This document shows, one piece after another, positions 1 through 37,799 of a DNA stretch of 64,000 bases. The notes beneath the pieces were generated by a model. That model ran no database searches. It was not told the origin of the DNA and was given only the letters and a program-made list of their open reading frames with translations. Position numbers and translations under genes: made by a program. Numbering within the stretch: the first letter of the stretch is position 1; each line of letters opens with the position of its first letter. The stretch lies in contig CAYPFM010000002.1 in assembly GCA_964410185.1 (NCBI GenBank), positions 134,047 through 198,046 of the forward strand, read 5' to 3'. The DNA comes from an uncultured Candidatus Saccharibacteria bacterium. GTDB taxonomy: Bacteria > Patescibacteriota > Saccharimonadia > Saccharimonadales > JAUPVS01.

Positions 1-70
1 AATCCACCGCCTCCAGGTTGCGGTCTGAGGCGGGGTTTGGGAAACCCGAATGAATCGACACATCAGTCAT
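1..70 (-). CDS. 5' end (partial, runs off window) of a LexA/UmuD-like S24 peptidase family protein
   Basis: ATG at 70..68 opens MTDVSIHSGFPNPASDRNLEAVD...; the SGFPNPA-D motif resembles the N-terminal GFPSPA(A/D)D motif of UmuD-type S24 peptidases. It is absent from the ORF track because it is truncated. Confidence 0.35.
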   Translation of the reverse strand, partial: MTDVSIHSGFPNPASDRNLEAVD

Positions 71-83
71 GGTATTAGTATAC

Positions 84-133
84 CTTTTTGGTTACGGCTT
101 CGACCTCAAGGGTCTGCAGATGTAACCAAAAAG
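84..133 (+). repeat. Hairpin-repeat family, copy A: perfect 12-bp stem plus conserved apical module
   Basis: Stem 84-95 (ctttttggttac) pairs perfectly with 122-133 (gtaaccaaaaag). The loop 96-121 is ggcttcGACCtcaagGGTCtgcagat, the same module as the reverse complement of the loops at 206-230 and 31761-31784. Confidence 0.8.
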
Positions 134-179
134 CCATCCTAATACCACACCTGAGCCGCCTATTTCTGTCGCCCGGAAA

Positions 180-256
180 GTAAACCTCGTTGCTACTTTT
201 ATTGCATCTGCAGGCCGTAAGGCCGAAGCCGCAATAAAAGTAGCAACGAGGTTTAC
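180..256 (-). repeat. Hairpin-repeat family, copy B: perfect 26-bp stem plus conserved apical module; overlaps the stop codon of the response-regulator gene
   Basis: 180-205 is the exact reverse complement of 231-256. The loop read on the minus strand is ggcttcGGCCttacGGCCtgcagat. The TAA stop of CDS 253..657 lies inside the right arm. Confidence 0.85.
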
Positions 257-666: not shown

Positions 667-2211
667 TTATCTTCTGTATAACGAGTGATTTTTGATCCAC
701 CCGTGGGCGTTGCGGGTAATGCCCTTATTATTGCTGTCTTTCAGATTTCCTGCAAGCGAGGCGTAGGGTTGCACGGTAAAGCTGACACTTGTGCCCTGGC
801 CTTCTCTGGACTTAATCCAGATGTTACCGCCCTGGGCTTTGACCAGTGACAAACAGAGGTAGAGGCCCAAGCCGGTGCCTCCGATGCGGGCTTGGTTATG
901 GTGGTTGCGATGGAACTTCTCGAACAGGCTGGGGATGACGCTGGCCGGGATGCCAACACCCTGATCGGTGACAGTGGTTTCGACCATATTATCGGTGGTG
1001 AGACGAGCATGAATGGTGACGACCTTGCCCTGGCCATTGCCGCTGTATTTAATGGCGTTGTCGAGGAGGTTGTTCAGTACCTCAATGACACTGATTTTGT
1101 CGACACCAACTTTGGGCACATTGGCGTCGACGGCGTACTTGATGGTGACACCCTTAATGCGCGCCGCTAGGCTGAGGTTTTCGGCAGCGCTTTTGACGAC
1201 ACTGGCCCAGTCTTCCTCTGCTAGTTTGAGGGCGAGCTGCCCTTCTTGGATACGTGCCACATTGAGAATATTGCCCACAAAGGCGGTTAACTGCTGAGCC
1301 GAGGCTTCCATGCGATCCATGAAGCTATTCATTTCGGGGTCGAGCTTGCCGGCCAGTTCATCTTCAAATATCTCTATATAGCCACGCAGCGCCGTCAATG
1401 GCGTCCGGAGTTCGTGGACCGCGAGGGCGATGAAGTCGAGGCCTTGGTCATCACCGTTGTAACGGTCAGTTTGGTCAAAAATCGTCAGAAGCATCTCGAT
1501 GCCGGAGGGGTCGTCTTTGCTATAGGCAGCGGCCATATCGAATTGCTTGAGCGTGGTTTGGTCGGCCAATTTGAGGCGGACGTGCTGCCAAGCATGACTA
1601 TCTTTAGCTTTGTTGGCGCGGCAGTCTTGCAGCCAGGCATCGAGCGTGTTCTCTTCTGAAAATGACAGATCAAAGACCGAGTACAGATTCTTTTGGAGCA
1701 CGTCGGCCGACTTCAGCCCCAAGTAGCGGAGGCCGGCTTGGTTGGCGAAGGTTATAACTTGATCCTTATTGACCGCAAAAACTGGCAGCGGCAGATCGTC
1801 GGCCATCTGCGTGGTCACACTTGGTTTCTGACTTTGGGGGCTACTGCCATTGGAGGTTTCGCTGGTGCTGGCCAGTTGGTAGACCTGTAGTGCCAAGGTG
1901 GTGACCAGCTCCTGGCCAATTTTATTCTTCTCCAGGTTTGGTGGCGCGGTGCTGCTATGCCCCGGTGTGACGTGAAGGATGGCGCGCCAGACAATATCAA
2001 GGGGTTTGAGCGAATAGTCGGCTAAGATAAGCGAAACAATCCAGACTGCCACCAGGCCAGTGACAAGGAGGAGGATGCTAATAATGTTGTCGTGGTTGGG
2101 ATACATCCGACGAACCATCCAAGAACCACCGACCATGATAAAGACGGTTAGGCCACCAAGTAGAAAGATGTAACTTTGGACTTGGCGTTTGAGCTTGTCG
2201 AAATTATCCAT
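667..2211 (-). CDS. Sensor histidine kinase (2 TM, PAS-like, HisKA, HATPase_c)
   Basis: 514 aa; H-box LAVHELRTPLTALRGYIE, N-box NLLDNAIKY, G-boxes DQGVGI and GGTGLGLYL; N-terminal hydrophobic helices. Confidence 0.9.
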   Translation of the reverse strand: MDNFDKLKRQVQSYIFLLGGLTVFIMVGGSWMVRRMYPNHDNIISILLLVTGLVAVWIVSLILADYSLKPLDIVWRAILHVTPGHSSTAPPNLEKNKIGQELVTTLALQVYQLASTSETSNGSSPQSQKPSVTTQMADDLPLPVFAVNKDQVITFANQAGLRYLGLKSADVLQKNLYSVFDLSFSEENTLDAWLQDCRANKAKDSHAWQHVRLKLADQTTLKQFDMAAAYSKDDPSGIEMLLTIFDQTDRYNGDDQGLDFIALAVHELRTPLTALRGYIEIFEDELAGKLDPEMNSFMDRMEASAQQLTAFVGNILNVARIQEGQLALKLAEEDWASVVKSAAENLSLAARIKGVTIKYAVDANVPKVGVDKISVIEVLNNLLDNAIKYSGNGQGKVVTIHARLTTDNMVETTVTDQGVGIPASVIPSLFEKFHRNHHNQARIGGTGLGLYLCLSLVKAQGGNIWIKSREGQGTSVSFTVQPYASLAGNLKDSNNKGITRNAHGWIKNHSLYRR

Positions 2212-2217
2212 ACGCTC

Positions 2218-3468
2218 CTACGGTTTATAGACTACGGCACCAGTGATGTTCACCAGGCTAATCCAGGTTTGTCCAGGGTTTAACTTGAGGGTATTGCCGT
2301 TACTATCTTTAAAAACGAACTGACTGGTGCGACTGTCTTTGGTCCATGTTCCTTGAGCGACGGCACCATCTTGGAAGACGTACATCGTGCCCGTACCGGT
2401 GGTCGTGTAGCTGTTGTGTGTACCGTCACTTTCCAGGGCGCTGGGAGTAACGAGGGCGATTACGACCTTGGGCGATAACTGGGCGCCAGACTTTTCGTCA
2501 GTATGAATTTTGCCACCTTCGCTGCGTTTGTAGCTATTGGTTGCAGCATCGTAGTCGTAGTGTGGGTTGTACAGATAGCTGGAAATCGCAAAATCAATGC
2601 TGGTAGCAGTTGGTGTGGCAACCTTGGCCTCGGGCTTGCGGACAAAACCAGTGAAGGTACTGCTGGTATAGCCCTTGGACTGGGCCAGCTTGTAGAGTTC
2701 GTCGATGCTGGAATAGACGTTGTGCGGTGCATAGCGCTGCGTAACACGATGGTAGGCGCTGGCGTTGGCGAACTGGTCGAGGTCTTTGACGTGCAGTTCC
2801 TTAATTTGAGCCAAAGCCGCGGGGCTACCACCGACATGGGCATACGAGGCATCGAACGGAAGTAGCCAGTCGAGATAGTACGGCCGTGAGCTGCGTATTG
2901 GGCCAATGTAGCCGGGCTGAGCCTCCTGGAAGAGCGCCAGGAAGCGCGTAATACCACCCTCGGCCACCGCTTCGTAGACAACACCGGCTTCGAGCAGGCC
3001 TGATTGTGGTCGGGCATCAGGACTGTTTTCGATCATAACCCCGGTAACGGCTCGTTTGTTCATCTCGGGCGGAACTTGTAACCCGGTCAGATTGGAGGGT
3101 TCGGTGGTTGGCTTAGTCTCGACCACAGCGGTTTTCTTAACAACTACGACTGCTTTTGGCTTGTGGGTCTGCTTGTAGGCGTAGACTCCCCCACCAATCA
3201 AGGCTAGCAGTAAGACCACCAAGAGGCCGGTAAATAATCGTTTCTTGCGCTTTGACCACGCTGTTGGCCAGATGTGAAACTTACGCTGCTTCTTGGGCGC
3301 CGCAGGTTTAGCTGGCTTGGGGGGCTTTGGCTCAATCGCTGGTTCTACTGGCTCCACTGTTGGCGTGGGTGGTTCAACGGGGGTTTGAACTGGTTCGCTT
3401 GGGAGCTCGGGCATCTTTTTATTTTTGGAGCCTTTTTTGGGCGCCGCAAAGTCGTTAATCATAAGCAA
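2218..3468 (-). CDS. DUF3048-family secreted/membrane-anchored protein (YerB-like)
   Basis: 416 aa; Pro/Lys-rich N-terminus, one TM, then GVMIENSPDARPQSGL..GITRFLALFQ, typical of DUF3048. Confidence 0.6.
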   Translation of the reverse strand: MLMINDFAAPKKGSKNKKMPELPSEPVQTPVEPPTPTVEPVEPAIEPKPPKPAKPAAPKKQRKFHIWPTAWSKRKKRLFTGLLVVLLLALIGGGVYAYKQTHKPKAVVVVKKTAVVETKPTTEPSNLTGLQVPPEMNKRAVTGVMIENSPDARPQSGLLEAGVVYEAVAEGGITRFLALFQEAQPGYIGPIRSSRPYYLDWLLPFDASYAHVGGSPAALAQIKELHVKDLDQFANASAYHRVTQRYAPHNVYSSIDELYKLAQSKGYTSSTFTGFVRKPEAKVATPTATSIDFAISSYLYNPHYDYDAATNSYKRSEGGKIHTDEKSGAQLSPKVVIALVTPSALESDGTHNSYTTTGTGTMYVFQDGAVAQGTWTKDSRTSQFVFKDSNGNTLKLNPGQTWISLVNITGAVVYKP

Positions 3469-3545
3469 TATTGTAGCAGGTGGGCCTCTGTTTCTAAAGC
3501 CCTTGCCCCACAGACCGCCCAGAGGAAAGAGGCCTTTTGGTGCTG

Positions 3546-4961
3546 TTAGAGTTGGGCGATGGAGCGGGCGAGCCGCTGGAGGGAGGCTTCTTTGCCAAGA
3601 ACGTGCAGTGTTTCGGCCAGGCCGGGGCTGGCAGGCGCCCAGGTGGTGGCGATGCGAATCAGGCTAAATAGGGTGCCCGGCTTCTGGCCGGTGGTTTCGA
3701 GTAGTTGGTTGAGCCGCTCCTGGAGGTCCCCAACCCCAAAGTCGCTTTGTTCCAAGGTGGTTTGGGCTTGCTCGAGTAAGGTCTTGAGTTGGCTATGGTC
3801 GAGTTTTTTGAGCTGCTTGTTGCCATCGATAAGCTCCATGTTGACCGGTAGCTCGGTGAAGAAGAAGTTGGTCAAGGCTGGCAGCTCAGCAAAGTATTTA
3901 AGCCGTTCCTGGGTGAGGCCCAACACGGCTTTTTTATAGTCTTCGGGAGCATCGGCGGCTTCGGCTGGCCAAAAGTCAGCGACTTTTTGGTAGAGGTCGT
4001 CCAACGGCAGTTCACGAATAAAGGAGCCATTAACCCAAAGTAAGCGGCGCTCGTCAAAGGCGGCGCCAGATTTGCCAACCCTGTCGAGACTAAACTTCTG
4101 AATTAACTCGTCGCGGGTAAAGACTTCTTGCTCGGTGCCATCGTTCCACCCCAGGGTGGCAATAAAGCTGACCAAGGCATCTGGTAGGTAGCCATCGCGG
4201 ATATAGTCTAAAACATCTTTGGCACCATCGCGTTTGCTGAGTTTTTTGTTACCGCCTTCGCCCAAGATATGCGGCATGGTGGCCAGAATTGGCCGTTCCA
4301 ACCCCAGCGCTTCATACAGGTTTAAGTAGTTCGGTGTGCTGGCCAAAAATTCCTGCCCGCGGATGACGTGGGTGATGTTCATTTCGGCGTCATCAACGAT
4401 GTGGGCGAAGTTGTAGGTCGGGTAGCCGTCGGACTTGATAAGGATAAAGTCGTCTTGGGCTTCGGGTCCGGCGTGCAGGTCGCCCATGACGGCGTCGTGC
4501 CACTCCCACTTCTGGGGGTTGGTTTTAAAGCGAAGTGGCGTCGTGCCATCCCAGGCAGGTGGGTTTTCGGGCCGGTGATTACGGTACAAAAATGGTTTCT
4601 TGTCTTTTTGGGCCTGCTCGCGGAAGGCTTGCACTTCGGCTGGGGTGTAGGGGTCGGCATAGGCATGACCGTCGGCAATTAACTGCTCGGCGTAGGCCTT
4701 ATAGACATCGAGGTGTTCGCTCTGGCGGATTGGCCCCTCATCAAAATCTAAACCGAGCGCCAAGAGGCTATCAACAATATGCTGGGCTGCCCCTTCAACC
4801 TCGCGGGCTTTGTCAGTATCTTCAAGCCGCAAAATGAACTGTCCCCCACCCTGTCGGGCTAGTAGCCAGGCAAACAAGGCGGTGCGAATGCCGCCCACAT
4901 GCAGGTAGCCAGTTGGGCTGGGAGCAAAACGGGTGCGTGGAGGGGTTGGGTTGGGAATCAT
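3546..4961 (-). CDS. gltX: Glutamate--tRNA ligase
   Basis: 471 aa; RTRFAPSPTGYLHVGGIRTALF (HIGH region) and KLSKRDG (KMSKS-like). Confidence 0.95.
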   Translation of the reverse strand: MIPNPTPPRTRFAPSPTGYLHVGGIRTALFAWLLARQGGGQFILRLEDTDKAREVEGAAQHIVDSLLALGLDFDEGPIRQSEHLDVYKAYAEQLIADGHAYADPYTPAEVQAFREQAQKDKKPFLYRNHRPENPPAWDGTTPLRFKTNPQKWEWHDAVMGDLHAGPEAQDDFILIKSDGYPTYNFAHIVDDAEMNITHVIRGQEFLASTPNYLNLYEALGLERPILATMPHILGEGGNKKLSKRDGAKDVLDYIRDGYLPDALVSFIATLGWNDGTEQEVFTRDELIQKFSLDRVGKSGAAFDERRLLWVNGSFIRELPLDDLYQKVADFWPAEAADAPEDYKKAVLGLTQERLKYFAELPALTNFFFTELPVNMELIDGNKQLKKLDHSQLKTLLEQAQTTLEQSDFGVGDLQERLNQLLETTGQKPGTLFSLIRIATTWAPASPGLAETLHVLGKEASLQRLARSIAQL

Positions 4962-5017
4962 GATTTACCTATTGTAACAGATAACGAGCGAGCTAAAGGC
5001 TATCGCTAGGCGGAAGC

Positions 5018-6118
5018 CTAGAGGCTATCGGCGATGCTGACGACTTGATCGCTACTCAGGCCAGCATTGCCGGTGACCTGATAAAGGACGCCACCATTGA
5101 CCCAGGCAGCGTTGGCGCCACCGTTGTAGAGATAGATGGTTTTACCCTTATCGAGCAGGGCGACAGGTGAATCATTGGATTTGAAGAAGTTAAAACGTAG
5201 CGAATCACTGGTCCAGTTGGAGGGCTGCTGGCTGACGGTATAGGTTCGGTTGTCGGTGTGCGACCGGAAGCTAACGGTGATATTGCCTGGTGTCGCTTTG
5301 ATAGGGCTACTCATACCAAAACCCCCCGGCGTATAAGCGGGCAAAGTGCCATGGAAGCCAGCGCGGCTACCAGCGATATACATCGAAATATTTGGTGCGC
5401 TCTGGTAAGCCACAAACCCGGACAGCAAAATAATCACCAAGCTAACGGTGGCGATACTGAGGGCGCGGTTACTGACACCGAGCTTCTTGGCAGCTCGATG
5501 ATGCAGTTTGGGTACCTTTGGTCGGCTTTGTTGGTGACTCTGGGCGGTTTCGAGAGCTTTATTAAAGGAGGCTTCACTACTTGACGGGCTTTGTTTTGGT
5601 GACGCTGAAGCGGCGTGAATGGGTGGCTCGCTGGCTGCAGGAGCTTTGGGGTGTGGCTGAACGGGCAGATGTTCAACTTTTTTATCGACTTTATCAGCCT
5701 CGGCCTGATTTTTACTTGTCGTGCCAAAACGACTAATTGCAGCGCTTTTGGCGACTTTCTGGGCGCGTTGTTGGCGTTCGTTCAGTTGGCTGGTTGGCAG
5801 TGATGGTTTGCTGGGTTTGGGTGCGTCGGCTTTTGTGGTGGTTGCAGTTACTGGTGTGGCAGCCGGCTTTTTGACGACGTGGCGCATCAAGGTCTGAGCG
5901 TGCTGTGGTTTGCGAGTGGCGGCTTGGGGCTTGGTAACGGGACGCGAGGTGGTTTTTTTAGCGGTCGCATGGCTGGGTGGACGGAAGAAGCCATCCATCG
6001 AAGCACCTGTTTTTGGTGTGGCAGCTTTGGTTGTTTTGGTTGCTGCTTGAACCATGGCCCCAGTCGAGGCGTCGTATAGTTTTCCGTTTAGTTCGATGGT
6101 TGTTTTTGGTTGGCCCAC
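5018..6118 (-). CDS. Hypothetical membrane-anchored protein with long low-complexity K/A/T/P-rich N-terminal region
   Basis: 366 aa intact ORF with a single TM (ALSIATVSLVIILLSGFVAY) followed by a globular C-terminal domain. No motif recognised. Confidence 0.5.
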   Translation of the reverse strand: MGQPKTTIELNGKLYDASTGAMVQAATKTTKAATPKTGASMDGFFRPPSHATAKKTTSRPVTKPQAATRKPQHAQTLMRHVVKKPAATPVTATTTKADAPKPSKPSLPTSQLNERQQRAQKVAKSAAISRFGTTSKNQAEADKVDKKVEHLPVQPHPKAPAASEPPIHAASASPKQSPSSSEASFNKALETAQSHQQSRPKVPKLHHRAAKKLGVSNRALSIATVSLVIILLSGFVAYQSAPNISMYIAGSRAGFHGTLPAYTPGGFGMSSPIKATPGNITVSFRSHTDNRTYTVSQQPSNWTSDSLRFNFFKSNDSPVALLDKGKTIYLYNGGANAAWVNGGVLYQVTGNAGLSSDQVVSIADSL

Positions 6119-6257: not shown

Positions 6258-7760
6258 TTGGGCAACGTATACACTTCTATGGACTTTTTAAACCCAACAA
6301 AAAAACGTGCCCAAAAAATTCAGCTAATCGTCGGCTATATCCTGATTGCTATTGCTATCGGCCTCGTAACGGCCATCCTAGTATTTCAGTCGTACGGGTA
6401 TGATCTAGACCGCAAAACCGGTGCTATTATCCAAAACGGCTTACTAGTAGTGGCCGCACAGCCAAAGCCAGCTGATATTTATTTGAACGGCAAACAGTAT
6501 AAGTCCCAATCTGATGCCAAGCTGGTCTTGCCGTCTGACATCTATAAGCTTGAATTGAAAAACAACGGTTACCGCGACTGGAGTCGTACGGTTAGTCTGG
6601 CTGGTGGCAGTATAGAACGATTTGTCTACCCATTCTTGTGGCCGCAGAATCTGACTGCTAAAACCCAGAAGACCTATGCTGCCGCACCAACTTTGGCCAC
6701 ACAGAGCCCTGACCGCCACTGGATGCTCATCCAGCAGCCGGGTCAGGTTGGCGTGTTTGACCAATATGATGCGAACGACAGTAAAAAGCCCGTCACGGTG
6801 GTTACCTTGCCGCCTACAGTTCTGCCGGCCGGTACTGGTCATCAATTATCGGTGGTAGAGTGGTCAACCGACAATCGACACGTTTTACTACAGGATGACT
6901 ACAGCGCGGGCCGCCAGTTTATCGTGCTGGATCGAGATACACCGACTTCTTCTTACAACGTGACGACGGCACTCAAGATAAACCCCTCGGAAGTTACGCT
7001 CAAAGATAAGCACTTCGACCAACTGTACGTCTACGACCAGGCCACCCACAAGCTTGATCTCGGTGATGTGAGAGATAGTACCGTTAAGCCAATTCTCACC
7101 AATGTCTTGGCCTTTAAGTCGCACGGTAGCGAACTCATCATGTACGCCAGCGACGAGGGCGCTACCGCCGGGAAAACCCGAATTATGATCAAGGACGGCG
7201 ATGGTTCATACCCCTTGCGCGAAGTCTCAGCCGGTTCAAAATATTTGATGGATTTGGCGCAGTATAGTGGGCACTGGTACGTCGGCGCCGGTGCCGCTGT
7301 TGATAATAAAGTGTACGTCTACAAAGACCCGCTCGATAAACTCAAACAAACCAAACCACAGCCAGTGGTGGCGGAGAGTGTGCTGCGCGTAACGGGTCCG
7401 GGCTGGATTGATTTCTCGGCCAACGCCCAGTCGCTGGCCATCCAGGGTGGCTCGCAGTTTAGCGTTTATGATGCCGAGAACCAACGAACCTACAAGTATG
7501 ATTTACAGCTACCAGTCGATACCGCCGCACCGAACGCCGAATGGATGGACGGTAACCGCCTGATCGTTAACAGTGCCGGCAAAATGGTGGTCGTGGACTT
7601 TGACGGCACCAACATGCAAACCCTATCAGCTAATCAGCCGGGCCTTTCACCCTTCTTCGATCGCCAATACAAACTGCTTTATAACATTGCTCCGGCGACA
7701 ACACCGGCTGGCAGCTTTAACCTCAATCGAGTCAACCTGCTGGTTGGCCAAAACAACTAG
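6258..7760 (+). CDS. PEGA-domain membrane protein (start probably ATG 6279)
   Basis: N-terminal TM, then ADIYLNGKQYKSQSDAKLVLPSDIYKLELKNNGYRDWSRTVSL (PEGA-like), then a beta-propeller-like region. Confidence 0.6.
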   Translation: MGNVYTSMDFLNPTKKRAQKIQLIVGYILIAIAIGLVTAILVFQSYGYDLDRKTGAIIQNGLLVVAAQPKPADIYLNGKQYKSQSDAKLVLPSDIYKLELKNNGYRDWSRTVSLAGGSIERFVYPFLWPQNLTAKTQKTYAAAPTLATQSPDRHWMLIQQPGQVGVFDQYDANDSKKPVTVVTLPPTVLPAGTGHQLSVVEWSTDNRHVLLQDDYSAGRQFIVLDRDTPTSSYNVTTALKINPSEVTLKDKHFDQLYVYDQATHKLDLGDVRDSTVKPILTNVLAFKSHGSELIMYASDEGATAGKTRIMIKDGDGSYPLREVSAGSKYLMDLAQYSGHWYVGAGAAVDNKVYVYKDPLDKLKQTKPQPVVAESVLRVTGPGWIDFSANAQSLAIQGGSQFSVYDAENQRTYKYDLQLPVDTAAPNAEWMDGNRLIVNSAGKMVVVDFDGTNMQTLSANQPGLSPFFDRQYKLLYNIAPATTPAGSFNLNRVNLLVGQNN

Positions 7761-8936
7761 CTAGTTCGTAAACCAACCGGTGATATGCTGCCAAAGCGTT
7801 GGTGCCTGGCTCGGGATGGTGGACGGTGTGTTATTGCTTTTAACAGCGGTACTGGCGCTGTTAGCGCTAGGATTGGGTGAGATCTGTTCACCAATCACCA
7901 CAAGGCGATTCAGTGAGGTGCCTGGTGGGTCACACGTGATTAAGGTAGCCGTCGCCGGCTTGTCGGTCGGCCCAAGCACCGAAACATCGTTTGGCTTAAC
8001 AACTTTACGGTCGTAGACGCGGTAGACATACCGTTTGCCGTTTTTAGTGAGCGTAAAGGTATCGCCAATCTGTAGCCGGTTTAGCAAGACAAAAGCGAAC
8101 TTATACTTCCCTTTGTTGAGAATATTATTACTGGAGTGGCCAAAAATGACGGTATTCCCCTGCTCTCCCGGCGATGACGTAGTGGAGTAATGAACCACAC
8201 CGTTTTCGAGCGAGTTTTGAATGGCGCTTTCGTCGATACTGTTTTGGTCGTATATGACAGGAATTTGGACGTTAATCTTGGGAATGATCACTTCGTTGGC
8301 ATTGCTGCTGGGTTGACTGCCATCGGCAATAATCGGGGTGTTACTGACAGTACGACTCGGGGTGATGAAGGGCGCGATGATCCGTTCGTTAAAGAACCCA
8401 AACAACATAATCATAATGGCAATGGAACCAATGCCGAGCCCAAATAATATCGACTGAAAGTGATGTTTGGCCTTGAGTTTACTACGGCTGTCGACGTGGC
8501 GCAGCAACTGCTTTTTGACCTGCCCGACCGTCCGCTGACTGGTTTTTTTATGGTGTGGCGCCGGCATTTCTTGAGGAGCCTCTTTGGCTTGTTTGGCCTT
8601 GGCGCTCTCGCTGTAGAACTCTTCCCAGACCTGGTGTTTCTCGTCATCTGGCAGGCCAAGATAGTACTGGTGCCAAGCCGTTTGAATCTCTGGCAAACTT
8701 TTACCGGAGTGACTTAGTTCGTACATGAACTTTTGATGTTTCGAACGATGACTGAGTCGAGCAACCTCGCGCTCTTCGTCTAGGGCATTTGGTTCATGAT
8801 GCTCCTTGGCCTCCTGAACGTACAAGGAGCTGATTTTTTGACGAATAACTTCTGCGGCCAATTCACCGGACGTGTCGTCAGACCCTTGGTTGGAGGGGTC
8901 GGCGTGCGCGGATTGAGGATTTGCTTCGTTCGTCAT
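7761..8936 (-). CDS. Sortase-family transpeptidase with long N-terminal cytoplasmic extension
   Basis: 391 aa; TVIFGHSS, ...TLITCDPPGT (catalytic TLxTC) and a TM helix before the catalytic domain. Confidence 0.85.
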   Translation of the reverse strand: MTNEANPQSAHADPSNQGSDDTSGELAAEVIRQKISSLYVQEAKEHHEPNALDEEREVARLSHRSKHQKFMYELSHSGKSLPEIQTAWHQYYLGLPDDEKHQVWEEFYSESAKAKQAKEAPQEMPAPHHKKTSQRTVGQVKKQLLRHVDSRSKLKAKHHFQSILFGLGIGSIAIMIMLFGFFNERIIAPFITPSRTVSNTPIIADGSQPSSNANEVIIPKINVQIPVIYDQNSIDESAIQNSLENGVVHYSTTSSPGEQGNTVIFGHSSNNILNKGKYKFAFVLLNRLQIGDTFTLTKNGKRYVYRVYDRKVVKPNDVSVLGPTDKPATATLITCDPPGTSLNRLVVIGEQISPNPSANSASTAVKSNNTPSTIPSQAPTLWQHITGWFTN

Positions 8937-9119: not shown

Positions 9120-9133
9120 GCTAGAATGAAAAC

Positions 9134-9156
9134 AACCGCCTTTAGGTGGTTTTTTA
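9134..9156 (+). terminator. Rho-independent terminator after tRNA-Leu
   Basis: AACCGCC-ttta-GGTGGTT (7 bp including one G-U) followed by TTTTATT. Confidence 0.7.
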
Positions 9157-9236
9157 TTCTAGGCTTGATACTTCAAGCACTGACTTGAACCGTGACCGCG
9201 AAGCGGCAGTGGTTTGGCGCGAGTTAACCTACATAG

Positions 9237-9382
9237 GTTTTCGCCTGCTATGGTTTTTGGAGCATGACTTAACGAGTTTTTAAGAATTCAGATTAACTAA
9301 GTTAAGAACATTCTGAAGTTATTTAATCTGAATTCTTACCTTTTGGTTAAATGGTGCTCCAAAATTCATAGCACGCAAAAAC
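9237..9382. repeat. 146-nt AT-rich imperfect palindrome (60-nt arms, 26-nt centre), MITE/foldback-like or long-hairpin RNA
   Basis: Arm 9237-9296 matches the reverse complement of 9323-9382 at 47/60 positions by my alignment. The inner 16 nt (taagaattcagattaa / ttaatctgaattctta) are perfect. Confidence 0.75.
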
Positions 9383-9389
9383 GGAGTAT

Positions 9390-10208
9390 CTAAAGGTTCG
9401 GTTGGCCGTATGCCTGCTCATGTACGGCCGTAGTCAGCGCCTCCAAGGGTTTGCCAGGATTCTGCAGCCACCAGACTACGGCGTGGCTGGCGGTCTTGAG
9501 TCGCCAACTCTTTTGCTCGCCAACATGGGTAGTAATCACCTGCCCGCCACTGGCGACGATGATATTTTCGTGATGATAACTAATGATATTGCAGGTGTGC
9601 TCGGCGGTGAACTCGTGCAGCCACTGAACATACTGGGCCAACCCAAAACTAAAGTTTAGGGCGGTCTCGAGTGGAGCTTTACGGCTCAACTTTTGCAGCT
9701 GGGCCAGGCTTAGGACCAAGGTTGTGCCCGGGCGATCCAGGATTGACTTGGGTTGAGCATAAAAGTAGTCGATGGCATCTTTGGTGATGACCATTGGCCG
9801 GTTGGTCTTGGTGGTGAAATTTTCGATGGTAATGGCGGTTTCGCTGTTACGACCCAGGTCCCCAGCCAATAAAATGGCGTCTGACCACTGTGACCATTCC
9901 AGCCAAGTAGCGATGGCTTGTTGGTTGAAGCTGCCGCTTGGCGTGCTGGGAGCGTACTCGCCGTTCTCTAGAATGCGACCAACCGTTTTTTGCAGGGCGT
10001 TTGGCAATAAGACTTTGGCGACACCAATACCGGCCTTCAAGGCTTCTTGATAGGCGCTAGCTGGCGCCGAAAAACCATACAAGTTGCCACCAATAATAAG
10101 CAGCTTACCGGCGTGCTGCTTGTTTTCGGGTCGGGCCCAAACTAAGTCTGGGAAGAGTGGCTTGTCCGGACTTTGCTTTTGCCAGTATTGGAGGTCGGAC
10201 GGGTTCAT
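9390..10208 (-). CDS. NAD(P)H-hydrate dehydratase-like carbohydrate kinase (YjeF C-terminal family)
   Basis: 272 aa; GKLLIIGGNLYGFSAPASAYQEALKAGIGVAKVLLP and AILLAGDLGRNSET match the YjeF_C pattern G(K)vliiGGs..y.GA..la..aAlr.GaG and GPGlG. Confidence 0.6.
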   Translation of the reverse strand: MNPSDLQYWQKQSPDKPLFPDLVWARPENKQHAGKLLIIGGNLYGFSAPASAYQEALKAGIGVAKVLLPNALQKTVGRILENGEYAPSTPSGSFNQQAIATWLEWSQWSDAILLAGDLGRNSETAITIENFTTKTNRPMVITKDAIDYFYAQPKSILDRPGTTLVLSLAQLQKLSRKAPLETALNFSFGLAQYVQWLHEFTAEHTCNIISYHHENIIVASGGQVITTHVGEQKSWRLKTASHAVVWWLQNPGKPLEALTTAVHEQAYGQPNL

Positions 10209-16636: not shown

Positions 16637-16758
16637 AGAAGTGAGATTCATTCTCCGCCAATACCCAGAGGTATTGGCTTCCGAACTCTACTCACTTCTT
16701 CCTCTAGCTTTTCCAAACAGTCGAGGCGAATGAATCGCCTCCTTGGTTTGGAAAAGCT
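16637..16758. promoter_or_regulatory. Two nested hairpins in the tRNA-Ser / ABC-transporter divergent intergenic region
   Basis: Hairpin 1: 16637-45/16691-99 (9 bp) enclosing 16657-64/16671-78 (8 bp). Hairpin 2: 16706-18/16746-58 (13 bp) enclosing 16723-29/16735-41 (7 bp). In addition, 16645-53 is the exact complement of 16728-36. Confidence 0.5.
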
Positions 16759-22431: not shown

Positions 22432-22881
22432 TTATGGGGTGACCGTAAAGGTCGACTGAATCTCGTCGTTTTTATGATCGTGAACCAAGAAGTCCTTGCC
22501 CGTTTGCGATAGGTTGATGGTGAATGACTGCTCCTTGCTGAGCACCTTGGTTTCGATGCCGTCATAAGGCGTGTGGGAGTCGTGTTTGCCAAAAGCGATT
22601 AGCCGGATGGCATCATCGCGGTTAGTTATGGTGAGAAGGTCGCATTGGTGAGCCTCAATGTGCTGCGGAGTAGCCTGGTCGTTTTCGATGTAGATCGTAT
22701 AATTGGTGGGATTAGCTTTGTTGCATTTTTGGCTGGCTTCCTTGCCGGCATAAAGTTGCTGTTGGGCAACGCGACTGGCCAGCAGGGCGGTAGCGGTGGC
22801 AACCAAAATAATAATCACAATGGTGGTTGGGCTTAAACTTTTGCGCTTACTGTGTTGTGGCTGTTGGGGTTCTTCTGTCAT
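22432..22881 (-). CDS. Membrane-anchored cupredoxin-like domain protein (paralog of CyoD C-terminal extension)
   Basis: 149 aa; one TM, then C-x-N..Y.I.I...ATPQHIEAHQCDLLTITNRDD..IAFG...LSQTG...FTVTP. The pattern aligns with residues ~125-220 of the upstream CDS. A 4-nt overlap places it in the cyo operon. Confidence 0.55.
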   Translation of the reverse strand: MTEEPQQPQHSKRKSLSPTTIVIIILVATATALLASRVAQQQLYAGKEASQKCNKANPTNYTIYIENDQATPQHIEAHQCDLLTITNRDDAIRLIAFGKHDSHTPYDGIETKVLSKEQSFTINLSQTGKDFLVHDHKNDEIQSTFTVTP

Positions 22882-23549
22882 CTCGCTGTTACCGTGAATT
22901 TGGCGATTGCCTTGGTGTTAAGTGGATTATAGTACGAATAGGTGCCGGTCTGATTGAGCGTCACCGTCTCGCTTTTACCTTTACGGATGGTGATGGTGGC
23001 CTGACCCGCGTAGGTGGTTGGGCTAGCGGGCGTACCAAACGTAATCTGGTGGCTGACACTATCCTGGTTGGTAAACGAAATTGTATCACAAAGTTCGGCC
23101 TGAATCTGCATGGGGCTGACAACACTGCCCAGCATGATTACCTGATGATTGGCCTTCGTGCCTTGGCAGGCACCCGTCTTGTTGCCTTCGACCTGCGGAA
23201 TGGCCTCGCCCTCGGCTAGCTGTTTGGCGGTGTCGGCTGGTGGCAGCATATTGTAGTGCAAGTGGCTCATGATGAACAAGGAGCCCCCGACCACAAAGGC
23301 AATAATGGCCACGGTGCCGGCAAAGAAAGCGACGTTATACAGCGGTTTTGGCCCCCTACCAAGGTGCAAGAAGTAGTAGACTTGTATTAGCACCTGCACT
23401 GTTGCGAGCCCAACAATAACGGCCAACAGATTTGTGGCCGTCGTCGATTTGTGCACTACCATGTAGTACGAAGCGGTCGTTAATAACAGACATAATACAA
23501 AGCCAGTAATATACGACCACACACTGGTTTCGGCAGGTTTACGGCTCAT
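22878..23549 (-). CDS. cyoD: Cytochrome o ubiquinol oxidase subunit IV (CyoD) fused to a C-terminal cupredoxin-like domain
   Basis: 223 aa, about twice the normal CyoD length. The N-terminal 3-TM CyoD region is YITGFVLCLLLT...QVLIQVYYFLHL. The C-terminal ~100 aa reads PMQIQAELCDTISFTNQDSVSHQITFG...LNQTG...FTVTAR. Confidence 0.75.
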   Translation of the reverse strand: MSRKPAETSVWSYITGFVLCLLLTTASYYMVVHKSTTATNLLAVIVGLATVQVLIQVYYFLHLGRGPKPLYNVAFFAGTVAIIAFVVGGSLFIMSHLHYNMLPPADTAKQLAEGEAIPQVEGNKTGACQGTKANHQVIMLGSVVSPMQIQAELCDTISFTNQDSVSHQITFGTPASPTTYAGQATITIRKGKSETVTLNQTGTYSYYNPLNTKAIAKFTVTAR

Positions 23550-24133
23550 ATAAAGGCCCTCAGATAAACAATAGTAAAGATAAAGATCCAGACGATGTCT
23601 AAGAAGTGCCAGTACAGGCTCAGTAGCCCGAGTTTACGCATCATCGATGGTGTGAGGCCTCGTTTGATGAGGAAGAAGAGGACGACCGCCATCCAGAGCA
23701 AGCCCAGGATGATGTGTAGCCCGTGGGTCCCAACCAGAACAAAGAACGACGACAAGAAGGCGCTGCTGCTCAGGGTGTGCCCTTCCCTTGCTAACTGCGC
23801 GAACTCAGTCAGCTCCATGCTCAAAAAGGCGAGGCCGAGCAAGAAAGTGACGCTAAACCAGGCCACAACCTGCTGTTTGTTGCCACGGCGGGCGGCAATC
23901 ATGGCCAGTCCGCAGGTAAAACTGCTGGTTAGCAATAGATAGGTCTCGGTCAATGCCAAGGGCAGACTAAATAGTTCGCGCCCAGACGGCCCACCGGCAG
24001 TGCTGTCGTGCAAAACGGCGTAGACAGCGAACAGGACGGCAAACATCAATAAATCGGTCATCAGGTACACCCAAAAGCCAAACATGGAACGTTCGTTGGC
24101 AGCGGCCTCGTGGTCTGCGACTAGTTTGCTCAT
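23546..24133 (-). CDS. cyoC: Cytochrome o ubiquinol oxidase subunit III
   Basis: Start MSKLVADHE at 24133 forms an ATGA overlap with the cyoB stop. FGFWVYLMTDLLMFAVLF and LYWHFLDIVWIFIF are typical subunit III helices. Confidence 0.9.
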   Translation of the reverse strand: MSKLVADHEAAANERSMFGFWVYLMTDLLMFAVLFAVYAVLHDSTAGGPSGRELFSLPLALTETYLLLTSSFTCGLAMIAARRGNKQQVVAWFSVTFLLGLAFLSMELTEFAQLAREGHTLSSSAFLSSFFVLVGTHGLHIILGLLWMAVVLFFLIKRGLTPSMMRKLGLLSLYWHFLDIVWIFIFTIVYLRAFI

Positions 24134-26217
24134 AATTCTCGCCACCTTCTGTGCTTGATGACACCAAACGCCCAACTAATCACGGTGCTGATGAATTCAC
24201 GCAGCCCCATATCGTGGTCACTATCCGGTTTGGCGGCGGCTTGGCGGAGCTGATCCTTTTTGATGCGAGCATTCTCGAGTTTCTCAACCTCGGCTGCCGT
24301 TAGGGTGTACTCAGTATCCTCGTTAAAAGTCCGGGCGATCACGCAAATAACAATTCCCAGAGCAGCGACAATAACCAGCCAGAGGATATTCCAAACAGCG
24401 CCAAAGCCAAACAAGAAGGCAAAGCCGGCGATGTATATGCCGGTGGCGATGTTCTTGGGCATGTGGATGTCCTCGTAGACTGGTTTGGTAATTCCCTGCT
24501 GCTTCATCTCCAAAAAGGCGTCACGGCTGCTTACCTGCGGGATGGTGACAAAGTTATAGAATGGCACTGGTGACGGTGTCGCCCATTCCAGAGAACGTCC
24601 ATCCCATGGGTCGCCGGTGGTGTCGGCCAGCTGGCGTTTTTGCATGAAGCTAGCGATAATCTGCACAAGTTGCAGAACCACCCCAGCCATAATGAGGATG
24701 CCGCCGCAAAGGGCGACGATAAAGAAAGCTCGCCAGCTGGTAGCGTCGTAATGATCCAGCCGTCGTGTTGCGCCCATGATTCCCAGTATGTACAGCGGGC
24801 CAAAGGCCATCCAAAAGCCAATCACCCAGCACCAAAAGGCGTAACGGCCGATTCGCTCGTTTAAGCGGAAGCCGGCGATCTTAGGGAACCAGTATGAAAT
24901 GCCGGCTAAAATCCCCCACAGAACACCACCAATCACCATGGTGTGGAAGTGTGCTACCAAGAAGAGGCTGTTGTGGAGTTGAAAATCAGCCGGTGGTTGA
25001 GCCAGCATCACGCCAGTCATACCGCCAACGGCGAAGGTGCCCACAAAGCCCAGGAACCACAGCATCGGCGTGGTGAACCGTATTCTTCCCTTGTAGAGGG
25101 TGGCGATCCAGTTAAATACCAGCACACTGGTTGGGATGGCGATTACCATGGTCATCAGGCCAAAAAAGGCGTTCACGTCGGCGCCAGCACCCATGGTAAA
25201 GAAGTGATGCAACCAAACCGACAAAGCAAAGAACGACACGCCAATCATGCCCAGGACGGCCGAGGTGTAACTGGCGATGCGTTTGCCGCTGAAGGTCGAG
25301 ACGACTTCGGAGAAGATACCAAAGGCTGGCAACATCAAGATGTAAACCTCGGGGTGACCCCACATCCAGATTAGGTTGGTGTACATCATGGCGTTACCAC
25401 CCGCGGTGGTGGTAAAGAAGTGGGTGCCCAAGGTACGGTCGAAGGTTAATAAGAACAAGGTGGCGGTTAAGAGCGGAAACACACAGACGGCCATAACCAT
25501 GCTGCACAACGAGCCCCACGTAAAGAGCGGCATCATGCGGAGCTTCATGCCAGGGGCGCGCATCTTAAAGATGGTAACGATAAAGTTAATTGCACCCAGG
25601 GTGGTACCGATGCCCGAAATCTGTAGCGCCCAGACCATGTAGTCAACACCGACACCAGGGCTAAACTCCCTGCCCGACAGTGGCGCCACGCCCAGCCAAC
25701 CGGTAGCGGCGTACTTACCACCAAAGATAAAGAACACATTGACCATAATTACGCCGGCAACATACAGCCAGAAGCCTAAGGTATTCAAAAAGGGCGAAGC
25801 CAAGTCGCGGGCACCAATTTGTAGCGGGACGATGTAGTTGATGAGCCCAAACACAAAGCCCATGGCCACAAAAAAGACCATGATGTTACCGTGGGCGGTA
25901 AAGAGTTGCTGGAAGTGATCGGCCGACAAAAAGCCGTGCGCCGATCCGGCGGAAAGTGATTGCTGTAGCCAGATCATGATGGCGTCAAGGCCGCCGCGCA
26001 ACAGCATGAAGCCAGCGACGATAAAGTACATAATGCCAATCTTCTTGGGGTCAACCGTGGTTAGCCACTCTTTCCAGAGCCACTTCCATCGCTTCAGGTA
26101 GGTTAAGACAAAGACTAAAAAGAGGCCGGAACCAATAAAGAAGACTGCTCCACCGATAGTGAACCACTCGTGTGGCAGCGATTCCCAGGTTAAATTACCA
26201 ACCAGCAATTCTTTCAT
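24130..26217 (-). CDS. cyoB: Cytochrome o ubiquinol oxidase subunit I (heme-copper oxidase)
   Basis: 695 aa; WMWGHPEVYILMLPAFG and HHFFTMGAG...FLVAHFH are heme/CuB ligand contexts. Confidence 0.95.
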   Translation of the reverse strand: MKELLVGNLTWESLPHEWFTIGGAVFFIGSGLFLVFVLTYLKRWKWLWKEWLTTVDPKKIGIMYFIVAGFMLLRGGLDAIMIWLQQSLSAGSAHGFLSADHFQQLFTAHGNIMVFFVAMGFVFGLINYIVPLQIGARDLASPFLNTLGFWLYVAGVIMVNVFFIFGGKYAATGWLGVAPLSGREFSPGVGVDYMVWALQISGIGTTLGAINFIVTIFKMRAPGMKLRMMPLFTWGSLCSMVMAVCVFPLLTATLFLLTFDRTLGTHFFTTTAGGNAMMYTNLIWMWGHPEVYILMLPAFGIFSEVVSTFSGKRIASYTSAVLGMIGVSFFALSVWLHHFFTMGAGADVNAFFGLMTMVIAIPTSVLVFNWIATLYKGRIRFTTPMLWFLGFVGTFAVGGMTGVMLAQPPADFQLHNSLFLVAHFHTMVIGGVLWGILAGISYWFPKIAGFRLNERIGRYAFWCWVIGFWMAFGPLYILGIMGATRRLDHYDATSWRAFFIVALCGGILIMAGVVLQLVQIIASFMQKRQLADTTGDPWDGRSLEWATPSPVPFYNFVTIPQVSSRDAFLEMKQQGITKPVYEDIHMPKNIATGIYIAGFAFLFGFGAVWNILWLVIVAALGIVICVIARTFNEDTEYTLTAAEVEKLENARIKKDQLRQAAAKPDSDHDMGLREFISTVISWAFGVIKHRRWREL

Positions 26218-27161
26218 TATTGTCCCTCTGTTTCGGATTCGGTGTGATGGCTGTGACCATCCCCATACTTCACAAGCACTGTATCATAGAGTCCGGCCGG
26301 GGCGGTAGAGTAAAACGCTACCGGATTGTTTTCGCTTGGGGTGAGCAGTGTTTTGTAGGCGGCGAAGTCCAGTGGATTGGCTGAGTGTTTAACATCCTGC
26401 ACCCAATTATCGAAGTCTTCTTGCGAGCCCACCCGAGTAGTGAACTTCATGTTGGCAAAGCCCTCACCGTTAATTTCGGCGGCTTGCCCGGTGTAATCAC
26501 CATTGGTATCGGCCATCAAGTTGAGCTGGTTGGAATGTCCTGTCATGGCATAGAGTTGCCCGCCAAGATGTGGAATCCAGAAAGAGTTCATGGGCGCCTC
26601 GTCGGCAGTGAGGTTGAAGTGTACTGGTGTATCGGCCGGGATTTCTACAAAATTAACAGTAGCGATGTTTTGCTCTGGATAGATAAACAGCCACTTCCAG
26701 CGCAAGGCGATGACCTGGATGGTGAGCGGCTTGGTGTCGGAAGAAATTGCCTTGTGGGGGTCAAGCTTGTGGGTCGCTGGAATCATCACCGAAGCGAGAA
26801 GTAGCAAGACAATACATGGAATCACCCATAAACTAAAGGCCGAGAATTTACCCTGCCCTACTTTGGTGTCGCGCTTGGCGTGTTCGTTTGATGCTCGATA
26901 TTTCCAGGCAAAAAAGTACAGCATGGAGAGGGTTGGGATGGCCACTGCTAGTAAGATGCCCACAACCGTAATAATAAGGCGTGCTTGCTGATCGGCGATT
27001 AATCCCTTGGGGTTGAGTAAGACTACATCCTTGCCGCGCAGCAGCACTACCATCAGGAGCGCGAGTGCGGACAGTCCCAAAACTATTACTCGTGCAGATG
27101 TACCCTGACGCGACGGTTTGTGCCGTTTCATTACCATAACCTCATTACTACCATCATACAC
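26217..27161 (-). CDS. cyoA: Ubiquinol oxidase subunit II (no CuA ligands); start possibly 27131
   Basis: 314 aa; two TM, then a cupredoxin domain NSFWIPHLGGQLYAMTGHSNQLNL...AEINGEGFANMKF, which lacks the CxExCGxxHxxM CuA motif as quinol oxidases do. Confidence 0.88.
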   Translation of the reverse strand: MYDGSNEVMVMKRHKPSRQGTSARVIVLGLSALALLMVVLLRGKDVVLLNPKGLIADQQARLIITVVGILLAVAIPTLSMLYFFAWKYRASNEHAKRDTKVGQGKFSAFSLWVIPCIVLLLLASVMIPATHKLDPHKAISSDTKPLTIQVIALRWKWLFIYPEQNIATVNFVEIPADTPVHFNLTADEAPMNSFWIPHLGGQLYAMTGHSNQLNLMADTNGDYTGQAAEINGEGFANMKFTTRVGSQEDFDNWVQDVKHSANPLDFAAYKTLLTPSENNPVAFYSTAPAGLYDTVLVKYGDGHSHHTESETEGQ

Positions 27162-27247
27162 CCAAAGGCCTTATGGTAACTAGACTATAATCGGTCAACC
27201 TTGCTGGACGCCCCATGGCTTTTAGCTTATGCTAGCACTACACTCGT

Positions 27248-31187: not shown

Positions 31188-31693
31188 TTATTTGTCTGTA
31201 AAGCCGTCATGATGTGATCGTATTCGGCTTGAGTGGTAAGTTCGTCTGCTTTCAGGCTGGCAGTATCACGCCAAACATATTCACTGACCTCATCGTTGGG
31301 GGCAAAATCACGATGAGCGAGCCTAGCACGCATAATCACGCCGACCAGCTGTCTTTCGTTACCCTCTTGCTTATGAAAGATAAGTCGACTGCCACCATAA
31401 CTAAAAGCGCCGTATTCCGAAGGCTTCATACCAAGCTCCTCTTGAATTTCTCGTTGCAAAGCTTCTTCTAGGGTTTCTCCCATATCCACAAAGCCGCCGG
31501 GCAAGTTCAGTTTGCCCTTTTCGGGTTCTTGGTTTCTTCGTCCCAGTAAGATCTTGCCATGATTATCTACAAACAGCGCATCGATTACCGGGATAGGATT
31601 AGCATAGTGATGGCGCCTGCAACCTGGGCAAAACCAAACAAGCCTTTCCTGGCGAACCTGAAGCTTAGTCCCGCAACCTGGGCAATAGTCCAT
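31184..31693 (-). CDS. NUDIX hydrolase with N-terminal zinc ribbon (NudC-like)
   Basis: 169 aa; CPGCGTKL...CPGCRRHHY, then the Nudix box GGFVDMGETLEEALQREIQEELG. Confidence 0.85.
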   Translation of the reverse strand: MDYCPGCGTKLQVRQERLVWFCPGCRRHHYANPIPVIDALFVDNHGKILLGRRNQEPEKGKLNLPGGFVDMGETLEEALQREIQEELGMKPSEYGAFSYGGSRLIFHKQEGNERQLVGVIMRARLAHRDFAPNDEVSEYVWRDTASLKADELTTQAEYDHIMTALQTNN

Positions 31694-31735
31694 TCCCCAA
31701 GTATAGCAAATTCAGCCCGGGACTTGCCCGCTGCT

Positions 31736-31809
31736 GGTTTTGTATGAAGCTAAGCATTGCATCTGCAGGCCGCAGGCCGAAGCCGCAATGCGAAGCTTTG
31801 TACAAAACC
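31736..31809 (-). repeat. Hairpin-repeat family, copy C: 25-nt arms (21 paired) plus conserved apical module; abuts stop codon of CDS 31809..
   Basis: Arms 31736-60 / 31785-809. The loop on the minus strand is ggcttcGGCCtgcGGCCtgcagat. The loop and 5 closing bp (attgc/gcaat) are near-identical to copy B, but the rest of the stem is unrelated. Confidence 0.8.
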
Positions 31810-34203: not shown

Positions 34204-34217
34204 CGTTTTCAGTGAAA

Positions 34218-37793: not shown

Positions 37794-37799
37794 GCTCGG

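Follow-up and report, generated by a model that had tools for sequence, protein, structure and literature searches.

A conserved hairpin-tip module in Candidatus Saccharibacteria and other bacteria marks a family of intergenic palindromes that may be small insertion elements

A 64,000-nt stretch of contig CAYPFM010000002.1, from an uncultured Candidatus Saccharibacteria bacterium, contains three intergenic hairpins, A, B and C, that carry the same apical module on otherwise unrelated arms (Table 1; the whole stretch is called the window here). Judged from sequence and predicted fold, hairpins capped by this module are an undescribed, multi-phylum family of intergenic elements. We put at roughly 45% the probability that they represent a palindromic insertion element, non-coding, dispersed and horizontally spread, which is similar in kind to repetitive extragenic palindromes (REPs), miniature inverted-repeat transposable elements (MITEs) and the intervening sequences (IVSs) of rRNA genes. 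It is an equally tentative proposal that the conserved tip is the part recognised by a putative factor. A small insertion element fits best because the hairpins are dispersed and non-coding, are gained and lost between relatives, are found inserted at the tip of an rRNA helix, and share an identical core across phyla.

Table 1. Module-capped hairpins of the 64-kb window and their apical modules.
Feature	Position	Strand	Description
Hairpin copy A	63-154	+	Perfect inner stem 84-95/122-133; imperfect outer stem 63-83/134-154
Copy A apical module	96-121	+	GGCTTC / GACC-TCAAG-GGTC / TGCAGAT; 52.1 bits (model R1); GGCTTCGACCTCAAGGGTCTGCAGAT
Hairpin copy B	180-256	-	Perfect 26-bp stem 180-205/231-256; co-oriented with response-regulator gene
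Copy B apical module	206-230	-	GGCTTC / GGCC-TTAC-GGCC / TGCAGAT; 56.8 bits (model R1); GGCTTCGGCCTTACGGCCTGCAGAT
Hairpin copy C	31736-31809	-	Imperfect arms of about 25 bp
Copy C apical module	31761-31784	-	GGCTTC / GGCC-TGC-GGCC / TGCAGAT; 56.0 bits (model R1)

As originally predicted, hairpins A and B stand between the stop codon of a response-regulator gene (253-657) and the start of a umuD-like gene (Peptidase_S24, ATG at 68-70), both on the minus strand, and the coordinates confirm two oppositely oriented hairpins whose perfect stems, of 12 and 26 bp, are 46 nt apart (134-179). The identity of the umuD-like gene is backed by synteny in relatives. The full 33-nt arms of A are 82% complementary. 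A -10-like TATACT, the umuD-like ATG and the next five bases of that gene all fall within the umuD-proximal arm, and the orientation of A is antisense to its two neighbours. Copy B begins at the response-regulator stop codon (253-255), which sits within its arm. Copy C, a third copy to which the prediction had merely alluded, has now been located. It starts on the final stop-codon base of a small conserved gene (31809-32303, minus strand) and ends 43 nt ahead of the promoter-like TATACT-N6-ATG, of the leaderless type, of a NUDIX gene. The stems of A and B had been said to share no sequence; this is true of their arms, which have nothing in common, except for the closing YTRC/GYAA. The arms of all three copies are otherwise unrelated, the common part being the closing 3-5 bp.

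The family architecture comprises an outer stem, an asymmetric internal loop GGCUUC / UGCAGAU (with an extra U at times), a 4-bp inner helix and a small loop. The module is thus a two-way junction of 26-34 nt, with GGCUUC as its 5′ strand, UGCAGAU(U) as its 3′ strand and a terminal loop of 3-6 nt. Across 42 hairpin copies from several phyla (here and below, counts of hairpin and non-hairpin copies are among the matches listed by the genome scan), 19 positions are invariant. The 13 formally unpaired junction bases, which form the asymmetric 6/7-nt loop, do not change while the inner helix covaries, reading GACC/GGTC in A and GGCC/GGCC in B. Both N positions were left free in the scan pattern, and N/N′ is complementary in 42 of 42 hairpin copies (GC 30, AU 8, CG 3, UA 1) but in just 20 of the 76 non-hairpin chance matches. 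Loop length is 3-6 in the former and mostly 5 or 8 in the latter. In alignment A1, which holds 40 sequences including the three window copies, the inner helix is 100% paired; its second pair (GC 27, AU 9, CG 3, UA 1) shows 13 double changes, and the covariation score of the whole tested structure was reached by no shuffle. The compensatory change in the inner helix, noticed at first in A and B, is therefore a property of the family. Variants found with covariance model R1, which was built from 40 copies, include a fourth pair changed from C-G to U-A (one variant) and TGCAGAA replacing TGCAGAT. Many 3-nt loops are in fact C(UNCG)G tetraloops, which read UUCG, UGCG or UACG in the forward direction; the module of copy C is equivalent to a 3-bp helix closed by C(UGCG)G. 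Further conserved internal loops adjoin the module in a subfamily that we call type 2 and in a Clostridial one.

The scan covered 185,579 genomes, one per species, with the pattern GGCTTCGNCC-N3-8-GGNCTGCAGAT. Hairpin and non-hairpin matches were sorted by curated inspection; classifiers based on flank pairing and minimum free energy (MFE) were too noisy in high-GC sequence. At least 42 matches lie at the tips of long hairpins in AT-moderate intergenic DNA, and the other 76 listed matches fall in high-GC coding sequence without stems. Carriers among the Candidate Phyla Radiation (CPR) are metagenome-assembled genomes (MAGs) of Saccharibacteria, Paceibacterota and other Patescibacteria. Those among the Clostridia include Eubacterium sp. 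UBA3782 (at least nine copies), Frisingicoccus, Anaerostipes and others. Seven species of Alicyclobacillus, type strains among them, and one Treponemataceae MAG, a spirochaete, complete the range. All copies are intergenic or at helix tips.

Searches for known relatives returned little. With Rfam 15, the window region and one Clostridial copy gave only sub-threshold matches to generic miRNA hairpins, the Alicyclobacillus spacer gave no match, and 18 copy-bearing loci gave rRNA and tRNA only. The module as a sequence string retrieved from the literature only primers and unrelated matches. A BLAST search of the 65-nt Clostridial unit against plasmids and phages found no match, and a scan of viral contigs found just four chance matches, all in high-GC contigs. 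Further copies exist in this genome and in others, the module sits at hairpin tips and Rfam 15 holds no match, so that the original prediction survives the refuting conditions it had set itself.

The window copies stand well clear of chance. The module pattern occurs there three times against 0.00 expected from 100 shuffles, and A, B and C have predicted folding energies of -38 to -56 kcal/mol, with z-scores of -5.5 to -12.6 against shuffled sequence. No degenerate modules were found in the window, the next R1 match after the three copies (52-57 bits) scoring 10 bits. The reading of these hairpins as ordinary intrinsic terminators with a coincidental or compositional likeness, or as an assembly artefact, is effectively refuted. 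It would suit the position of copies at gene ends and the resemblance of type-2 relatives to bidirectional terminators. However, it leaves unexplained 19 invariant positions in 42 copies from several phyla and three copies where none is expected, and the genome also has canonical short terminators, for example at 9121-9162. The window hairpins are not an assembly artefact, because the same sequence is present in independent assemblies: the A/B region is 100% identical in Logan assembly SRR12404947, and copy C is present at 99.95% identity in JGI assembly 3300045319. Occurrence of the module in three independent assemblies and in isolate genomes, those of cultured Alicyclobacillus type strains included, rules out an assembly or adapter origin.

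The pairing of A and B in opposite orientation had suggested a REP or bacterial interspersed mosaic element (BIME) mobilised by a Y1 transposase of the REP-associated tyrosine transposase (RAYT) type. The likeness consists in an extragenic, multi-copy, hairpin-forming element whose A and B copies form an inverted pair resembling a BIME or a REP doublet (REPIN). REP sequences are, however, lineage-specific, and the present core is common to several phyla. There is also no conserved GTAG-like 5′ tetranucleotide with a conserved palindrome; A, B and C have unrelated arms and their conservation lies in the apex; A and B each fold alone and do not pair with each other; and no Y1 transposase domain occurs among the 60 open reading frames (ORFs) of the ~64-kb window. 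A factor encoded elsewhere would still be in keeping with the available text of one study, in which REP-type elements are non-autonomous and reliant on a single-copy transposase encoded elsewhere (PMC3337134). Inheritance of REPIN-RAYT systems is for the most part vertical, according to the accessible part of the RAREFAN preprint (10.1101/2022.05.22.493013). We regard this explanation as very unlikely, and the suggested link to a RAYT is unsupported. Two related arrangements were also rejected: a single REPIN-like superhairpin of A and B, because their arms are unrelated, and a composite of two insertion sequence (IS) ends, because the module halves are not inverted copies of each other.

Orientation relative to flanking ORFs was scored for 27 copies. 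About 10 stand behind a co-oriented gene, 6 sit antisense in spacers of co-directional genes, 9 in those of convergent genes and 2 in those of divergent genes (loci L048 and L078), which places 25 of the 27 at a gene 3′ end or in a convergent-gene spacer. The hairpin often occupies the entire spacer. In the Clostridia the antisense orientation is at least as common, being found in four of about six unambiguous sites. Over all copies, G.T and A.C mismatches (72 versus 96) show no strand preference, and T-runs after the hairpin (mean 2.5 versus 2.8 by direction) show no preference for direction; MFE folding over-extends the stems. The observations that copy B lacks a U-tract, being followed on the minus strand by TTTCCGGG with three T only, and that copy A is not downstream of any plus-strand gene were both correct; copy C is followed by AGCAGCGG. 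The conclusion first drawn from them, that the hairpins are not simple terminators, stands insofar as they are more than that. It needs amending for the family as a whole, in which many relatives have terminator-like bases and could serve as terminators.

Copies are also associated with rRNA operons in two phyla. Alicyclobacillus copies are placed either within the 23S-5S spacer, about 30 nt upstream of the 5S gene, or downstream of that gene, and always in reverse orientation to the rRNA. The module was present in every rRNA operon examined in cultured strains, and in five of five recovered loci of the complete A. fastidiosus genome it is in the 23S-5S spacer. In A. hesperidum (L090, 280-640) this spacer is built from three units of about 110 nt in tandem, every one of which contains a module-like hairpin and CGAAGC words in repeat; two units have diverged modules, with loops GAAA and GAGA, of the GNRA type, in the rRNA sense. 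The canonical unit of the same locus is flanked by tandem G.A/A.G mismatches in the rRNA sense. A Saccharibacteria MAG (L053) has one copy in the 23S-5S spacer and another inside the 23S gene, both forward to the rRNA. The latter, with its module at 5420-5445, is a 92-nt module-capped hairpin that replaces about 5 nt at the tip of a domain I hairpin (positions 274-296 of the Rfam large subunit (LSU) rRNA model). The L053 23S rRNA gene (1961-5769) is 3.8 kb long against a 2.9-kb model, an excess that indicates further insertions besides this hairpin.

These data bear on a second explanation, in which the hairpins are host-selected structured RNAs and their tip internal loop is the site that an RNA-binding protein or double-strand RNase binds or measures from. 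Such RNAs would set mRNA 3′ ends and direct processing of rRNA spacers and IVSs, and the copies would arise mainly by local evolution rather than transposition. A precedent exists in RNase III enzymes that recognise the apex and cleave a set distance away from the loop. The strict invariance of an asymmetric 6/7-nt loop beside a covarying helix, the UNCG-type loops read forward and GNRA-type loops in the Alicyclobacillus spacer units, the conserved internal loops of two subfamilies, the rarity of decayed modules and a sense-strand bias in the CPR together suggest selection on the folded strand. Copies in the rRNA operons of two phyla and copies that begin exactly at stop codons point the same way. 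Because the module reads in opposite orientations at different sites and in different lineages, however, the two transcribed RNAs are complementary and not identical, and one protein could not read both. It is forward in the Saccharibacterial rRNA operon and reverse in Alicyclobacillus, in most of the unambiguous Clostridial sites and in copy A. The two copies between divergent genes, the lack of strand preference in mismatch types and the lack of a preferred T-run direction count against this explanation as well. So does the finding that orthologous sites and 78 kb of sequence from close relatives lack the module (see below), which indicates that it is not an essential conserved signal. We consider a host RNA of this kind possible but on balance doubtful. 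The structured-RNA motif of the original prediction survives as a real module recurring at hairpin tips; a dedicated RNA gene is hard to reconcile with both orientations.

The independence of orientation from transcription speaks for a third candidate, a folded single-stranded DNA site for recombination or nicking, like an integron attC site, an IS200/IS605 end or a rolling-circle origin. Its user would be a recombinase or nuclease, and any RNA role would be incidental. The loop length of 3-6 nt and the helix covariation indicate that a folded strand rather than duplex DNA is recognised, and the gain and loss of copies between relatives also speaks for such a site. Yet the architecture is the opposite of attC, in which the base is conserved and the tip varies. 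A and B, 84 nt apart and opposed, have no consistent orientation relative to replication, and orientations are opposite in the rRNA operons of two lineages. Furthermore, no integrase or HUH gene is found among the 60 window ORFs and there is no cargo between copies. Such a site is improbable.

Comparison with related loci (L-numbers and P0006 denote loci compared, copy-bearing or related) supports the insertion-element reading. Relatives keep the genes in the order DUF3048 - histidine kinase - response regulator - Peptidase_S24 (umuD-like) - IMS polymerase, and homologues of the neighbouring histidine kinase are annotated as Saccharimonadales. In L123, L126, L127 and the P0006 locus, with 66-77% kinase identity, the response-regulator/umuD spacer measures 4-39 nt and holds only a TACAAT/TATAAT box 6-7 nt ahead of the ATG. 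L121 and L122 have a 199-nt spacer without the module, synteny being otherwise kept. No module was found in 78 kb of 15 related loci; a metagenome scan with the histidine kinase recovered 11 loci, all lacking the module, and exact-protein look-ups for empty sites returned the same strain only. Hairpins A and B are thus lineage-specific additions, because they are absent from the orthologous spacer of relatives. The umuD-like and NUDIX genes (window 68-85 and 31691-31712, minus strand) and orthologues in L123, L126 and L127 have a TATACT, TACAAT or TATAAT box 6-7 nt ahead of their ATG, which suggests leaderless transcripts.

Replacement is apparent elsewhere. Loci L078 and L066 share about 90% identity along some 6 kb, and where L078 has a 118-nt module hairpin (copy at 5606-5630), L066 has an unrelated small hairpin, AAATACTAAAT-TGCCTCGCGG-ATTTAGTATTT, between well-conserved flanks. 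No target-site duplication is evident between the filled and the replaced site, whose boundaries are blurred. At a second site a copy is present in both loci; the module is identical, and the mid-arm sequence differs yet still pairs. At the L066 site orthologous to the L078 copy (7745-7790), the loop of the small hairpin, TGCCTCGCGGAT, faintly resembles a collapsed module (GCCTC / GCGGAT versus GGCTTC / GCAGAT) and could be a decayed copy or a chance likeness.

Conservation peaks at the apex and declines outwards; within lineages, the 5-20 nt beside the module are also conserved. Cassettes larger than the module recur at unrelated loci in different MAGs. The cassette CACTGC-module-GCAGTGCTC is common to L043 (692-736) and L078 (5596-5640), loci with no mutual BLAST match; CATTACGCRAAC-module-TGTTYGCTTTAATG recurs in UBA3782; and GGCAAC-module-TGNTTGCCCGCAGG is common to L109 and L044. 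In one Paceibacterota MAG the whole hairpins of L054, L100 and L024 share 84-91% identity across 86-104 nt. Saccharibacteria again show the type-2 design, which runs A-run, CCCCG, AT-rich stem, TCAAC-module-GTTTC, CGGGG, T-run. Apex-centred conservation and shared cassettes together indicate that the spreading unit is the module plus a variable length of arm. The original picture of a conserved loop on freely varying stems was accurate as to a recognised structure; it was too strong as to the stems, given the conserved bases near the module and the whole hairpins just described. In UBA3782, tandem direct pairs of elements about 95 nt apart occur in L071 (6923-7064) and L116 (6970-7107); truncation of the first copy's right arm in these pairs indicates partial tandem duplication.

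How such an element might spread can be sketched in three steps. In the first, a cassette consisting of the module and 5-20 nt of arm, or in some lineages the whole ~100-nt hairpin, would be copied into intergenic DNA by a putative factor that reads the folded module as single-stranded DNA or RNA. Its preferred landing site would be the tip of a pre-existing hairpin, such as a terminator, an rRNA spacer hairpin or an rRNA helix. In the second, template switching between the arms during replication would keep them complementary, extend them into the flanks, and could invert the asymmetric module. This would account for stems that are perfect but unrelated, for concerted change between orthologues, for arms that run over a stop codon or a promoter and start, and for both orientations. 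In the available text of three reports, template switching homogenises and expands inverted-repeat arms, inverts the spacer, and creates and maintains RNA hairpins (PMC8604942, PMC13100816, PMC8794818). In the third step the transcribed stem-loop would act as a transcript 3′ end, a terminator or a processing hairpin for a double-strand RNase, a role that would explain the tolerance of copies that directly follow stop codons, lie in rRNA spacers or extend 23S rRNA in the manner of an IVS. Judging from position, the transcribed hairpin probably does serve as one of these structures, and the element may be both mobile and exploited by its host.

A bolder version of this scheme would make the family a new type of mobile element, a "hairpin-tip invader". 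This would be a non-coding cassette of about 45-100 nt copied into the apices of DNA or RNA hairpins by a structure-specific enzyme that reads the two-way junction. Horizontal transfer would carry it among CPR bacteria, Firmicutes and spirochaetes, and its copies would serve as portable hairpins for transcript ends or processing. We think this rather unlikely.

Several findings weigh against an insertion element. Among CPR copies about 10 are co-oriented and 2 anti-oriented with the neighbouring gene, a bias that, like the frequency of UNCG-type loops, points to a role at the RNA level. The 275 kb of copy-bearing loci yielded only four variant modules, and this scarcity of degenerate forms fits purifying selection at the host level better than the neutral decay of a selfish repeat. 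Neither target-site duplications nor defined ends of the element were seen, the 60 ORFs of the window include no transposase, recombinase or HUH domain, and no copy was found in the phage, plasmid or viral collections that could act as a vector. The window copies are also without U-tracts, which leaves a terminator role for them putative.

The window holds other hairpins and several unusual genes. An AT-rich palindrome of about 150 nt (9230-9390), with 72-nt arms that are 78% complementary, a 2-nt centre and no module, follows directly after a tRNA-Leu and the canonical short terminator mentioned above; it may represent a further family of such long intergenic structures. Three more long hairpins that lack the module occur at 16706-16758, 56607-56650 and 59381-59430, and features among these three are 24-bp arms beside a tRNA-Ser, a position abutting the 3′ end of a tRNA-Asn, and an 18-bp hairpin upstream of a glycosyltransferase gene. 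The protein encoded at 31809-32303, next to copy C, has no Pfam match and a conserved C-terminal pattern ...F.KG..LR.FP..(M/I)EFG...CTF.DG.QYLV..G..V..LFDMTDG..TYRLR.... In relative L132 (~1560-1800) its homologue is flanked by the response regulator and umuD, and the gene resembles a small mobile or shuffled one.

The regions 22878-28117 and 42390-43019 encode COX1, COX2, a COX4_pro-like protein, a UbiA-family heme O synthase-like protein and an Fe/Mn superoxide dismutase. An aerobic gene set with cytochrome oxidase and superoxide dismutase is, to our knowledge, unusual for CPR bacteria. Nine consecutive ORFs (188-700 aa) at 33490-42105 have no Pfam match at E<=1e-5. A 2′-5′ RNA ligase/LigT-family gene beside a tRNA-Asn and a nearby gene for an AAA_33/zeta-toxin-like kinase (55857-56372 and 60899-61408) are possible RNA-repair functions.

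If the insertion-element reading is correct, these hairpins form a cross-phylum non-coding family that combines an invariant asymmetric tip with fast, concertedly evolving arms, and their existence implies a factor that recognises a folded 13-base junction. They could explain the origin of the long perfect hairpins behind genes in compact CPR genomes, and the hairpins of mRNA ends and of rRNA spacers would be tied, together with rRNA intervening sequences, to a single element. The cultured Alicyclobacillus carriers make the question open to experiment, and the module provides a practical marker for an Rfam-type model.

Known RNA motifs were compared with the module by eye, on both strands and against consensus sequences, and none fits. 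They comprised the K-turn (3-nt bulge, then tandem G.A), loop E/sarcin-ricin (AGUA/GAA), the 11-nt receptor (CCUAAG/UAUGG) and the hammerhead core (CUGANGA...GAAA); UAA/GAN, SRP domain IV, mimicry of a T-arm or anticodon loop, and the T-box specifier loop; and the licT/sacY ribonucleic antiterminator (RAT), Cas12a repeat ends and group II domain V. Yeast Rnt1p hairpins capped by AGNN, and RNase III sites of phage T7, have a conserved feature, at the apex or in an internal loop, on a long stem whose sequence is otherwise free. They resemble the module hairpins in this and in their intergenic and rRNA-precursor location, but the module occurs in both transcriptional orientations. We know of no apex-recognising RNase III-type enzyme in these bacteria. 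An intrinsic terminator has a GC-rich stem and a U-tract, a combination not seen in copies B and C, and A is antisense to its neighbours; type-2 relatives are terminator-like, with a CCCCG/CGGGG clamp and runs of A and T. Integron attC sites, which adjoin cassette ORFs and an integrase, have extrahelical bases, R′′/R′ boxes at the stem base and a variable apex; the module family reverses this order of conserved base and variable apex, and the window ORFs include no integrase.

Among dispersed repeats, Correia/CREE, ERIC/IRU, BOX and RUP repeats and the mycobacterial TRITs are intergenic and fold in mRNA, where they act as terminators, RNase sites or stabilisers. They keep conserved terminal inverted repeats or their full length within one genus or family, whereas in the module family the centre is most conserved. 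MITEs have terminal inverted repeats that are conserved and related to an IS family, together with a target-site duplication; the outer ends of the module hairpins vary between copies. Hairpins produced by template switching are similar in having perfect or concerted arms that run into functional flanks and a spacer in both orientations (PMC8794818, PMC8604942, PMC13100816); switching explains the arms, but leaves an identical 26-nt core at unrelated loci and in unrelated phyla unexplained.

The 92-nt stem-loop at a 23S helix tip in L053 resembles 23S IVSs such as the Coxiella helix-45 element (PMC4990558) and those excised by RNase III (PMC8708148), which are sporadic extended stem-loops regarded as selfish insertions. 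An extra stem-loop replacing a 23S helix tip is found in L053 only and not in the window copies, and the L053 site may differ from the classical IVS sites at helices 9, 25 or 45. Unlike IVSs, most module copies lie outside rRNA, behind protein genes. Like the module hairpins, REP, BIME and REPIN sequences are short, non-coding, extragenic hairpin repeats of high copy number that occur alone or in inverted pairs. In both, transcription at gene ends is frequent and dependence on a factor encoded elsewhere is presumed (PMC3337134, PMC3116915). The difference lies in what is conserved: in REPs it is the whole palindrome and a 5′ tetranucleotide within one lineage, and in the module family it is the apex, borne on arms that differ, with a core shared across phyla.

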